DNA of 64,000 nucleotides. Origin: an uncultured Candidatus Saccharibacteria bacterium (lineage in GTDB: Bacteria; Patescibacteriota; Saccharimonadia; Saccharimonadales; CAYUUR01). The stretch is from the NCBI GenBank assembly GCA_964448075.1, contig CAYUUR010000001.1:1785-65784 (forward strand), given 5' to 3'. The notes under the pieces are model-generated. The model searched no databases. It worked only from the letters and a program-made list of their open reading frames with translations, and had not been told where the DNA came from. The position numbers and the translations under genes were made by a program. Shown here one piece after another: positions 34,956 through 36,314 of the stretch; the stretch's first letter is position 1, and every line of letters begins with the position of its first letter.

Positions 34956-35032
34956 TGGAGCCGTTGTAATCTTCGATTTCACCTGGCCTCCTTGGAAAAT
35001 ACGAGCAAACACGGTTGTTCAGTATTGTCCTC
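34956..35032 (-). repeat. tRNA-Thr-trailing structured unit u' (ends in a copy of the tRNA-Thr(GGU) acceptor 3' strand)
   Basis: Minus-sense GAGGACAATAC-TGAACAACCGTGTTTGCTC-GTATTTTCC-AAGGAGGCC..AATC-GAA-GATT-ACAACGGCTCCA; the last 12 nt match the tRNA 3' end at 35033-35044. Confidence 0.6.
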
Positions 35033-35107
35033 TGGAGCCGTTGTCGGGATTTGAACCCGAGACCCCTTCCTTACCATGGAAGTGCTCTACCACTGAGCTA
35101 CAACGGC
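35033..35107 (-). tRNA. tRNA-Thr (anticodon GGU), CCA encoded
   Basis: Hand fold: GCCGTTG acceptor, anticodon arm CTTCC-ATGGTAA-GGAAG, T loop TTCAAAT. Confidence 0.9.
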
Positions 35108-35137
35108 ACATTCAGTGGACTATGATAGCATTTTTAG

Positions 35138-35521
35138 CTATTTTCTGAAAGCTCTCTCTGAAGGTAGTTTCAGAGTATACAAGGGTGCAATCTCCTCGAC
35201 AACTGCCGCCTGCTCAACAATAAGCCAAGGCTTAACAGTGCTGGTTAATCCCCGCCGGACAATACTAAAGTATCTACTGTCTTCATCGGACATTTCGGTT
35301 ATTAATGGCTCAAAAAGCATTTCTGCGTCATCTGCACCGAGTCTTAGGTATTCAGCTGGCTGTGAATGTACGAAACACACCAATCTGCCTAAAGCATGCT
35401 CTTTATCCTGGGCAACTATAGTAAAGTCGACAGCTCGAACATCATCCTCGACCCTGCCCCAATACCATTTCTCGCGTTCATCCATTATATATACAGTAGA
35501 ACGGTTCACCATGCTTAACAA
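35138..35521 (-). CDS. hypothetical acidic protein (about 115-127 aa) between tRNA genes
   Basis: ORF-track start is TTG; ATG candidates at 35512 and 35485; no SD; no recognisable domain. Confidence 0.4.
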   Translation of the reverse strand: MLSMVNRSTVYIMDEREKWYWGRVEDDVRAVDFTIVAQDKEHALGRLVCFVHSQPAEYLRLGADDAEMLFEPLITEMSDEDSRYFSIVRRGLTSTVKPWLIVEQAAVVEEIAPLYTLKLPSERAFRK

Positions 35522-35679
35522 CTATAAACACCAATATTCTGTTGTAATTTCAATCTCGACAGTGTTGGATGAAAACACTTCCGTGGTTTTTTGAAAAAGT
35601 AAGAATTCGCTTAACAGATAAAAAGACCTCCGATGAGGCCTTAATTCAGTATGGTGCAGCATCATGGCTGAGATCAGAC

Positions 35680-35907
35680 CTATTTTAGACCTGAGCCCGC
35701 AGCACAGGTTGAGCCAATGACTTTACAGGACATTTCGCTTTTATGAGGATTTCTCACATATACTTCTGTCAGTTCACACTCTTGAACGCCGCCACATGTC
35801 ACGACAAGCTCGTCAGCTCCATCTCTTGTCATAAATTCTTCTACCGCTGGGTCGCAATTCCTATAGATAAGACAGTTATCCCATTCGATTGTCTCTTGCG
35901 TTCTCAT
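35680..35907 (-). CDS. hypothetical Cys-rich small protein (75 aa) between tRNA genes
   Basis: First ATG at 35905-35907. An extended -10-like TGATATACT ends about 7 nt upstream, so possibly leaderless. Confidence 0.35.
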   Translation of the reverse strand: MRTQETIEWDNCLIYRNCDPAVEEFMTRDGADELVVTCGGVQECELTEVYVRNPHKSEMSCKVIGSTCAAGSGLK

Positions 35908-35927
35908 TAGCAAAGTATATCAAATCT

Positions 35928-35951
35928 AAAAGACTTCCGAAGAAGTCTTTT
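35928..35951 (-). terminator. intrinsic terminator after tRNA-Tyr
   Basis: Perfect 10-bp stem AAAAGACTTC/GAAGTCTTTT with a 4-nt loop, 15 nt after the tRNA 3' end. Confidence 0.7.
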
Positions 35952-35965
35952 GAGCATAAGCGATT

Positions 35966-36051
35966 TGGTGCAGGGAGAGGGATTCGAACCCCCGAAGGCA
36001 TAAGCCAGCAGATTTACAGTCTGCCGTGTTTGACCGCTTCACTACCCCTGC
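35966..36051 (-). tRNA. tRNA-Tyr (anticodon GUA), long variable arm, CCA encoded
   Basis: Hand fold: anticodon arm GCAGA-CTGTAAA-TCTGC, long extra arm, T loop TTCGAAT. Confidence 0.88.
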
Positions 36052-36158
36052 ATATGAAGGAGCCGGAGCTCCTTCTTTGTTAAAACACTTCTTGAAACTA
36101 CACTCACATTGTAATCTCTTTTGATTAGGATTCCTCGCAATGGTCCTAATCAACTCAA

Positions 36159-36237
36159 TTCTGGAGCCGCCTGTAGCCTTCGGCTTCATCCGGCTTCCTC
36201 GAAAACATATTGCCAGCAAGCTGTCATATGTTTTCTG
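36159..36237 (-). repeat. tRNA-Thr-trailing structured unit u1
   Basis: Minus-sense GAAAACATAT-GACAGCTTGCTGGCA-ATATGTTTTC-GAGGAAGCC..AGCC-GAA-GGCT-ACAGGCGGCTCCA; the last 13 nt match the 3' end of tRNA-Thr(UGU). Confidence 0.6.
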
Positions 36238-36314
36238 TTGAGCCGCCTGTAACCCTTTGGGATGCAGTTGCTCCCTCAGAAAGTTCAAGCCAGCAAGCTG
36301 TCAGAACTTTCTTC
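36238..36314 (-). repeat. tRNA-Thr-trailing structured unit u2
   Basis: Minus-sense AGAAAGTTC-TGACAGCTTGCTGGCTT-GAACTTTCT-GAGGGAGCA..CCC-AAA-GGG-TTACAGGCGGCTCA; directly abuts the tRNA-Thr(UGU) 3' end. Confidence 0.6.

Follow-up and report, generated by a model that had tools for sequence, protein, structure and literature searches.

Conserved, structured insertion units at the 3' ends of tRNA-Thr genes in a group of Saccharibacteria

The stretch of DNA analyzed here, 64,000 nt of contig CAYUUR010000001.1 from an uncultured Saccharibacteria bacterium (hereafter the window), holds three short units that contain no open reading frame (ORF) and directly follow tRNA-Thr genes: u2 and u1 stand in tandem behind tRNA-Thr(UGU), and u' stands behind tRNA-Thr(GGU). 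They are a new conserved and structured variant of the insertions that occur at tRNA ends in Saccharibacteria, and they are real and non-random. With moderate confidence we favor the view that they are short insertion modules, confined to the tRNA-Thr 3' ends of one Saccharibacteria group, whose body acts as a co-transcribed trailer RNA. Direct repeats of tRNA ends are usually dismissed as scars, whereas the tiny, geneless DNA between the repeats described here is conserved, structured, specific to tRNA-Thr and shuffled between relatives. The units could represent an undescribed RNA family that is processed from tRNA precursors in bacteria with very small genomes or, alternatively, the minimal form of an undescribed route of DNA insertion at tRNA ends.

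Conservation and fold of the units

For comparison, about 110 related loci (L-numbers in the following) were gathered, 80 of which are metagenome loci anchored on the TPR protein encoded next to tRNA-Thr(UGU), the remainder being obtained through exact-protein look-ups. A covariance model built from six units (R1) recovered the window copies with E-values of 1e-12 to 1e-20. In the 64-kb window and ~0.65 Mb of related loci it matched only directly 3' of tRNA-Thr, and no dispersed copies were detected in this set. An earlier note on this DNA had described the three copies as structured repeats trailing the tRNA-Thr genes; the additional copies establish a genuine homologous family, every R1 match of which lies, over ~0.7 Mb, immediately behind a tRNA-Thr. 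About eight Saccharibacteria lineages beyond the window carry units. Besides the window with its three, the carriers are the near-identical strain L004 and L121, L122, L006, L086, L089, L013, and L059, and a partial copy is present in L033. Orthologs of u1 were recognized in L004, L006, L089, and L122, those of u2 in L086, L089, and L122; L013 and L059 possess units although their TPR proteins are just 74–77% identical to that of the window. Rfam returned tRNA matches only, both for the window region (E ≤ 10) and for 16 related loci (at gathering score), and BLASTN of u2 plus u1 against phage and plasmid collections gave no match. Three pattern scans of viral contigs, one for the hairpin-1 tip with the purine block and two for domain 2, yielded chance matches, none of which was confirmed by R1 or adjacent to a tRNA. 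T-box elements and type III antitoxin repeats were set aside, as their defining features are not present.

Each unit is predicted to fold into two domains (Table 1). The first, a long hairpin (hairpin 1) that begins 2–3 nt past the preceding CCA, has a lower stem whose sequence varies with covarying pairs, together with a purine-purine mismatch and a CAG-CUUG-CUG tip that are both conserved. The second is an acceptor-like helix that encloses the short hairpin 2. In this predicted helix GGA-(A)-GCC(G/A) of a purine block pairs with (C/U)GGC-UCC of the copy of the tRNA acceptor strand at the end of the unit: GCC(G/A) corresponds to nucleotides 1–4 of the local tRNA, the preceding GGA pairs with U73-C74-C75, and the top 3–4 bp of the local tRNA-Thr acceptor stem are rebuilt. 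ARAGORN and the Rfam tRNA model made no tRNA call on the units. The arms of hairpin 1, the purine blocks, the hairpin-2 sequences, and the unit ends proved to be as the earlier note had written them, and its limits for u2 and u' were correct. That of u1 was not, because the end given at 36159 adds 3 nt of flanking DNA to a 76-nt unit that stops at 36162. Its statement that the units lack a 5' acceptor strand is imprecise in view of the tRNA nucleotides held by the purine block, and the period of ~77 nt it reported applies within the window but not as a rule, given that orthologous units measure 72–77 nt and other insert families at these tRNAs 44, 81, 145–190, and 300–520 nt.

Covariation was assessed on an alignment of 13 distinct units, with 500 shuffles and with controls in which the pairing partners were slid. 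In hairpin 1, nine of the ten outer pairs and two of the four inner pairs change on both sides; 87.6% of its cells are paired, compared with 27–52% in the slid controls, and the observed covariation was reached in 0/500 shuffles. Hairpin 2 covaries visibly as well (AGCC/GGCT, AGCT/AGCT, AGCCC/GGGCT, AATC/GATT) and is absent from L013 and L059. The compensatory change inferred earlier from three copies is thus strong in the first hairpin and discernible in the second. At the sequence level, conservation is seen in the CAG-CUUG-CUG tip, in the purine-purine mismatch beneath this tip, and in the block UUUYCGAGGRAGC. Since GCC...GGC-U-CCA is common to all tRNA-Thr, the acceptor-like helix varies little, but its fourth pair tracks the local tRNA, being G:C with GCCG/CGGC and A:U with GCCA/UGGC (L013, L059). 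On the tRNA-sense strand about 11 G.U wobbles compare with three A.C appositions, an excess that weakly marks this strand as the folded one.

The units also diverge slowly. Four-fold sites of the flanking genes differ by 0.28–0.38 between the window and L122, and by 0.61–0.68 between the window and L006, L086, or L089. Over the same comparisons u1 diverged by 1.3, 6.6, and 17% and u2 by 6.5, 6.5, and 18%, and the alleles of u' differ by 7.8 and 13%. The adjacent spacer diverged by 11–50%, which is above the values of the units (0.013–0.18). As the units evolve 3–10 times more slowly than four-fold sites, they are not decaying scars. Three alleles of u' occur among strains with identical PspC, and hypermutation of u' was considered as a cause. 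It was rejected, since the flanks are constrained (tRNA, promoter, and coding sequence) and the strains lie 28–38% apart at four-fold sites; u' is therefore conserved rather than hypervariable. The alignment and these rates show a body of ~64 nt that is apparently kept by purifying selection as two predicted helices on the tRNA-sense strand.

Insertion behind the CCA end and a possible role of the trailer

On the minus strand the locus reads TPR gene, tRNA-Thr(UGU), u2, u1, a 110-nt spacer, tRNA-Tyr, two small ORFs, tRNA-Thr(GGU), u', and the pspC promoter, whose -35 box begins at 34955 and thus adjoins u'; pspC, rpmG, and a LysM/transglycosylase gene follow. The 13-nt core ACAGGCGGCTCCA is found three times with at most one mismatch (36315–36327, 36238–36250, and 36162–36174; chance expectation 0.03), and the 12-nt core ACAACGGCTCCA twice (35033–35044 and 34956–34967). 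The end of u2 contains CTCAA in this genome and CTCCA in the orthologs of L086 and L122. More generally, of 184 tRNAs, 21 have a 9-mer from their 3' end repeated in the 600 nt that follow them, and none (0/184) has such a repeat on the upstream side.

Table 1. Positions within the 64-kb window of the units, the tRNA genes, and other features of the locus.
Feature	Position	Strand	Remarks
u2	36238–36314 (77 nt)	minus	3' of tRNA-Thr(UGU); R1 72.5 bits, E = 2e-14
u2, parts	hairpin 1 ~36278–36312; end 36238–36250	minus	purine block GAGGGAGCA; hairpin 2 CCC-AAA-GGG; end ACAGGCGGCTCAA
u1	36162–36237 (76 nt)	minus	fold z-score -4.8; R1 97.7 bits
u1, parts	hairpin 1 ~36201–36235; end 36162–36174	minus	purine block GAGGAAGCCGG then ATG; hairpin 2 AGCC-GAA-GGCT; end ACAGGCGGCTCCA
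u'	34956–35032 (77 nt)	minus	3' of tRNA-Thr(GGU); R1 64.7 bits
u', parts	hairpin 1 ~34994–35030; end 34956–34967	minus	purine block AAGGAGGCCAG then GTG; hairpin 2 AATC-GAA-GATT; end ACAACGGCTCCA
TPR protein gene	36435–37088	minus	
tRNA-Thr(UGU)	36315–36391	minus	ARAGORN; Rfam 76 bits; last 13 nt ACAGGCGGCTCCA (36315–36327), the repeated core
Older Thr-Tyr spacer module	36052–36161	minus	TTGCGAGGA-loop hairpin, second hairpin, GTGTTTTAACAA, GAAGGAGC/GCTCCTTC hairpin
tRNA-Tyr(GUA)	35966–36051	minus	ARAGORN, Rfam; second tRNA of the conserved Thr-Tyr-Thr cluster
307-bp insert	35652–35965	minus	directly 3' of tRNA-Tyr CCA; terminator-like hairpin first; ends in tRNA-Tyr copy CTGCACCA (35652–35659)
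tRNA-Thr(GGU)	35033–35107	minus	ARAGORN, Rfam; last 12 nt ACAACGGCTCCA (35033–35044), the repeated core
tRNA-Trp	26396–26471		
6.3-kb element	26472–32779	plus	directly 3' of tRNA-Trp CCA; Pfam: large serine recombinase, Phage_CRI-type Rep protein

Empty sites define the insertions precisely. Compared with L086, u' is an exact insertion of 65 + 12 nt between the CCA of tRNA-Thr(GGU) and the -35 box of pspC, and the site is empty in L086, L006, and 37 others, so that 0/39 other tRNA-Thr(GGU) loci carry u'. At tRNA-Thr(UGU), a spacer with a TTGCGAG-loop hairpin abuts the CCA in L092, L096, and L098 (82–84% TPR identity), and in the unit-bearing clade the units lie exactly between the two. Copy number at the site varies from zero to two among relatives. 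The array reads u2-u1 in the window, L004, and L089 and u1-u2 in L121 and L122, each order being backed by two independent assemblies; L006 has u1 alone, and L086 has an unrelated 44-nt unit plus u2.

The acceptor copy at the unit end is therefore most plausibly a junction duplication that arose when DNA was inserted immediately behind the CCA, which the sequence comparisons appear largely to demonstrate. Each unit ends in the local acceptor strand because such an insertion duplicates the tRNA end, and as integration at tRNA 3' ends is known to leave this duplication, the match to the own tRNA needs no RNA mimicry. The rule noted earlier, that each unit ends in the acceptor strand of its own tRNA, holds as a rule but not absolutely (see below). 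Of the suggestion that the units are decayed att sites (attachment sites) of tRNA-targeting DNA, the att-type repeats stand, in light of the empty sites, the copy number, the swapped order, and the inserts at tRNA-Tyr and tRNA-Trp, and the decay does not. At the DNA level, the interpretation as insertion modules that are bounded by tRNA-end duplications, and whose number and order are changed by recombination at the repeats, is well supported.

The mechanism that we envisage combines this DNA layer with an RNA layer. DNA would enter exactly after the CCA of the tRNA, the insert ending in a direct repeat of the last 12–13 nt of the tRNA, and recombination between the tRNA-end repeats would add, remove, and re-order units; the recombinase presumably acts in trans, or else the rearrangements may be repeat-mediated. 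Once in place, the unit would work as RNA within the tRNA-Thr precursor. Our best guess is that hairpin 1 serves as a stop, pause, or roadblock element, and that the acceptor-like helix provides a second tRNA-like end that is cut by maturation enzymes, by which each unit would be freed as a discrete RNA of ~77 nt. A role of the body in the tRNA-Thr precursor, including co-transcription and processing, is favored because the strand of the units is always that of the tRNA, because neither a promoter nor a terminator is predicted between the tRNA and the units, because low-copy orthologous units stay conserved over long divergence, and because the tRNA-Thr-like end restored by the second helix could guide tRNA-maturing enzymes.

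Several observations weigh against this interpretation. The acceptor-like helix buries C74 and C75, unlike a normal substrate of RNase P or the CCA-adding enzyme, and hairpin 1 was not called as a canonical intrinsic terminator by the scan, even though its 3' arm is U-rich. Most lineages lack units, so any function for the host must be accessory, and the low divergence could partly stem from gene flow around identical tRNA genes instead of selection. In L089 the ends of the units, ACAATCGGCTCCA and ACAGCGGCTCCA, differ from ACAGGCGGCTCCA, the end of the adjacent tRNA, and do not fit tRNA-Thr(GGU) of L089 either; likewise the unit of L013 ends in GGTGGTTCCA, which has no exact match in the local tRNA. 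As for the insertion itself, in L086, L089, L121, and L122 the ~4 kb around the arrays yielded no recombinase call, no donor element carrying a unit was found, and a unit of 77 nt is too small for a double-stranded circle, which makes the arrival of u' at a second tRNA with an end of the local type hard to explain.

The Thr-Tyr-Thr cluster and its other inserts

Homologs of the TPR protein carry Saccharibacteria or Saccharimonadales annotation, and the order TPR gene, tRNA-Thr(UGU), tRNA-Tyr, tRNA-Thr(GGU) is conserved, with synteny in ~70 loci. In many lineages the three tRNAs are just 1–20 nt apart. Across ~60 lineages the Thr-Tyr spacer is anywhere from 1 to 502 nt long, and with so many short ones the long spacers are to be seen as lineage-specific additions. 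A homology search of genome contigs with the DNA polymerase III delta' neighbor returned distant Micavibrio matches only. Short-read contigs from different samples end inside tRNA-Thr(UGU) in L005, L087, L088, L090, L091, and L095, which fits strain heterogeneity just downstream of that tRNA.

The older module that fills the spacer of the window is widespread (L081, L012, L028, L041, L092, L096, L098, L086, L089, and L006), and in the unit-free L092, L096, and L098 and many other relatives it lies directly 3' of the tRNA-Thr CCA. It comprises a hairpin with a (T)TGCGAG(R)A loop and a covarying stem, a second hairpin, and then (R)GGTGTTACAAT, a candidate extended -10 box or boxA-like site; Rfam gave no match for the module. 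L033 (1525–1858) and L042 (2443–2777) have homologous Thr-Tyr spacers of ~335 nt that share conserved blocks (gcaaacttgttttg, ccatcacac). Neither an ORF nor an Rfam match was found in them, and they could be an unknown structured RNA.

tRNA-Tyr has received inserts as well. The 307-bp insert of the window encodes a Cys-rich protein of 77 amino acids (35680–35913) without a Pfam match; the 99%-identical strain L004 lacks it, the junctions being exact, and a homolog of the ORF follows tRNA-Tyr in the distant L007 within different flanks. Further single-gene inserts lie between tRNA-Tyr and its terminator in L007 (1773–2128), L010 (1359–1779), L024 (5927–6345), L042 (2864–3273), and L085 (minus strand). 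Their cargo includes one clear NUDIX protein, one weak, sub-threshold MazG-like match, and one protein that is membrane protein-like by sequence, the others being unknown. These inserts share the 3' motif ACTTCGTACAnnACG + CTGCACCA, present once per locus and often preceded by GCAG or GCAGCG, which is able to pair with CTGC of the tRNA-end copy. ORF-less units of 145–190 nt also follow tRNA-Tyr, in L069/L075 (6346–6490), in L096 (minus strand) and, two in tandem, in L122 (1549–1873). They start with a strong or terminator-like hairpin and finish with 15–20 nt of the tRNA-Tyr 3' end. Taken together with the 81-nt units behind tRNA-Thr, the layout is a hairpin at the start and a last 15–26 nt derived from the tRNA.

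Between the tRNA-Tyr terminator and tRNA-Thr(GGU), the window has a region (35108–35651, minus strand) with an ORF of 127 amino acids (35138–35521) and CCA-(ta)CTGAAT on both sides. Relatives carry other genes in this gap, namely a short-chain dehydrogenase plus MazG in L086 and a glycosyltransferase in L089, so that it looks like a small variable island. In L013 a gene for a PD-(D/E)XK endonuclease (8089–8518; PDDEXK_5, E = 6e-22) stands between the tRNA-Thr unit and tRNA-Tyr and may encode a free-standing homing-type nuclease of the tRNA cluster. The Thr-Tyr-Thr cluster is a hot spot that gathers small cargo genes, which bears on how reduced genomes acquire accessory functions.

Elsewhere in the window, the 6.3-kb element behind tRNA-Trp has a GC content of 0.40–0.43, which is lower. 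It encodes the serine recombinase (26394–27962, minus strand), the last ~25 codons of which run antisense through the tRNA-Trp gene, and the Phage_CRI-type replication protein (28164–29321). Its far end, ...GGCAG-N27-GCTGCCA, repeats the last 6 nt of tRNA-Trp, and L125 offers an exact empty site. An older ORF-less leftover (32780–33003), which is also present in L125, lies behind the element and consists of a terminator hairpin (aaaaggatcccgtctggggtcctttt), ~200 nt, and a 20-nt fragment of the tRNA-Trp 3' end (tcaagtcctgtctcccctgc). This fragment (32984–33003) was considered as the end of the element and rejected, since the empty site of L125 puts that end at 32779 and the fragment within the older leftover.

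Alternative explanations and comparison with known systems

The main alternative, although an unlikely one, is that the units are empty mini-cassettes of a tRNA-anchored system resembling integrons or hairpin transposons. Their hairpins would then be recombination sites read as folded single-stranded DNA, without any RNA role, the acceptor-like helix would imitate the target, a folded tRNA end, and the units would be mobilized in trans. The swap between u2-u1 and u1-u2 and the gain and loss of units do resemble excision and re-insertion beside the tRNA. The shared 3' site of the single-gene tRNA-Tyr inserts, often found after GCAG/GCAGCG, points the same way, as does the serine-recombinase element at tRNA-Trp, which likewise ends in GGCAG-N27-CTGCC-A, and u' has the end of its local tRNA despite being only ~60% identical to u1 and u2. 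The loops of hairpin 2 are mostly GAA or GCA closed by C:G, a motif associated with very stable DNA mini-hairpins. However, the surroundings of the arrays showed no recombinase of any kind, be it an integron-type integrase or a Y1 transposase, and attC R/L boxes are lacking. The units occur in only one to three copies, all at tRNA-Thr and none dispersed, and their orthologs are conserved over a synonymous divergence (dS) of > 0.6, which selfish elements of low copy number would not usually show. The G.U bias is equally compatible with RNA, and the motif of the tRNA-Tyr cassettes is present once per locus and not arrayed.

A broader version of this idea, which we hold to be somewhat less likely again, is a cassette system of Saccharibacteria in which modules that are empty or carry one gene enter, leave, and change places behind the CCA of tRNA-Thr, -Tyr, and -Trp, the site being a hairpin that mimics the top of the acceptor stem. 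If this were true, it would constitute an integron-like platform for gene capture in which tRNA ends play the part of attI and tRNA promoters are exploited, with the 77-nt units as its minimal, self-maintaining members.

It is also doubtful, but conceivable, as the earlier note suggested, that the trailer RNA acts through its resemblance to the tRNA-Thr acceptor end, as a decoy or sponge for an acceptor- or CCA-recognizing enzyme or toxin, or by pairing with the tRNA. The predicted helix rebuilds G1:C72, C2:G71, and C3:G70, with or without pair 4:69, plus U73-CCA of the local tRNA-Thr, and the units are specific to tRNA-Thr and under purifying selection. Functional tRNA spacers exist, such as 3'ETS-leuZ (PMC8166272). 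In the predicted minimum free energy fold of the precursor, the 5' strand of the tRNA can pair with the acceptor copy of the unit, but this alternative pairing follows trivially from the repeat. A junction duplication is the simpler explanation, as the unrelated inserts at tRNA-Tyr and tRNA-Trp match their tRNAs too. Moreover, C74 and C75 would be paired and not free, the middle of the acceptor copy may drift, as in L089, and no gene for a partner toxin or enzyme is linked to the units.

That the units are neutral scars, i.e., remains of formerly larger integrated elements that have repeated att cores and serve no function today, appears improbable. Arrays of partial tRNAs beside tRNA genes are the classic trace of repeated integration (10.1101/2020.12.28.424599), and the window itself contains such a leftover at tRNA-Trp (32780–33003), which ends in a 20-nt tRNA fragment. 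Yet the units are 3–10 times more conserved than four-fold sites and also exceed the neighboring spacer in conservation, substitutions in their stems are compensatory, and the body recurs behind two different tRNAs as well as in lineages with a TPR identity of only 74–77%.

Even less credence is due to a translation start of a tiny peptide, for which GAGG(A/G)AG followed 6–7 nt on by ATG, GTG, or TTG in the u1/u' class might be taken. A start codon occupies the same place in all nine distinct units of this class (ATG five times, GTG three times, TTG once), and the u' alleles have GTG, TTG, and GTG. However, the frame through the acceptor copy varies between units, neither the length of the peptide nor the position of its stop is conserved, the frame of u1 in the window runs through tRNA-Tyr, four units of the u2 class have CTG, and the TG is explained as well by pairing with CA of TACA. 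Decayed tandem duplicates of the tRNA-Thr gene are hardly tenable: the period of 76–77 nt, the common last 12–13 nt, and GCC(G/A) of the 5' acceptor strand in the purine block would agree with them, but beyond the last 13 nt the similarity of the bodies to the cognate tRNA stays at shuffle level (global-alignment z of -2.1 to +0.75 with 1000 shuffles, no better than for tRNA-Tyr or tRNA-Trp), so that the bodies cannot be regarded as diverged tRNA copies; the resemblance of u' is to u1 and u2, not to tRNA-Thr(GGU), and orthologous units vary between 72 and 77 nt.

The favored interpretation, insertion modules with a functional trailer RNA, places the units between several known systems. Tycheposons of Prochlorococcus integrate at tRNA 3' ends and leave arrays of partial-tRNA repeats (10.1101/2020.12.28.424599). 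As in these and in genomic islands, a direct repeat of the tRNA 3' segment in the same orientation bounds each insert, new inserts adjoin the intact tRNA, tandem arrays form and are gained and lost between close relatives, and an integrase-bearing example is present in the same window at tRNA-Trp. The units differ from them in measuring 72–77 nt, in having neither an ORF nor an integrase, and in the shortness of the repeat (12–13 nt). Their body, moreover, is a conserved, covarying structure that appears to be under purifying selection and not a neutrally decaying remnant.

With integron cassettes and their attC sites the units share the small size of the modules, a repeated core, the conservation of structure over sequence, changes in order, and a single fixed anchor site. 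Unlike integrons, they have no IntI in their flanks; neither R/L boxes nor a GTTRRRY core were recognized on reading of the sequences, a tRNA 3' end serves as the anchor, no gene is carried, and an array comprises one or two units. REP/REPIN sequences and the PATEs derived from IS200/IS605 are similarly short and ORF-less, show compensatory change in their stems, insert 3' of a defined sequence, and have an end of their own that resembles the target. They are, however, scattered over the genome in high copy number and require a Y1 transposase or RAYT, whereas the units are confined to tRNA-Thr ends, match the local tRNA over 12–13 nt, and have no Y1 transposase visible near the arrays.

For the RNA layer, mascRNA and the t-elements of plant mitochondria are precedents of tRNA-like processing signals. 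In E. coli, 3'ETS-leuZ is a functional tRNA spacer (reviewed in PMC8166272). These RNAs differ from the units in lacking tRNA-end duplications at their borders and in keeping their order between strains. What the units have in common with them is a conserved sequence in a tRNA precursor, as predicted, and a tRNA-like helix that could direct tRNA-processing enzymes.

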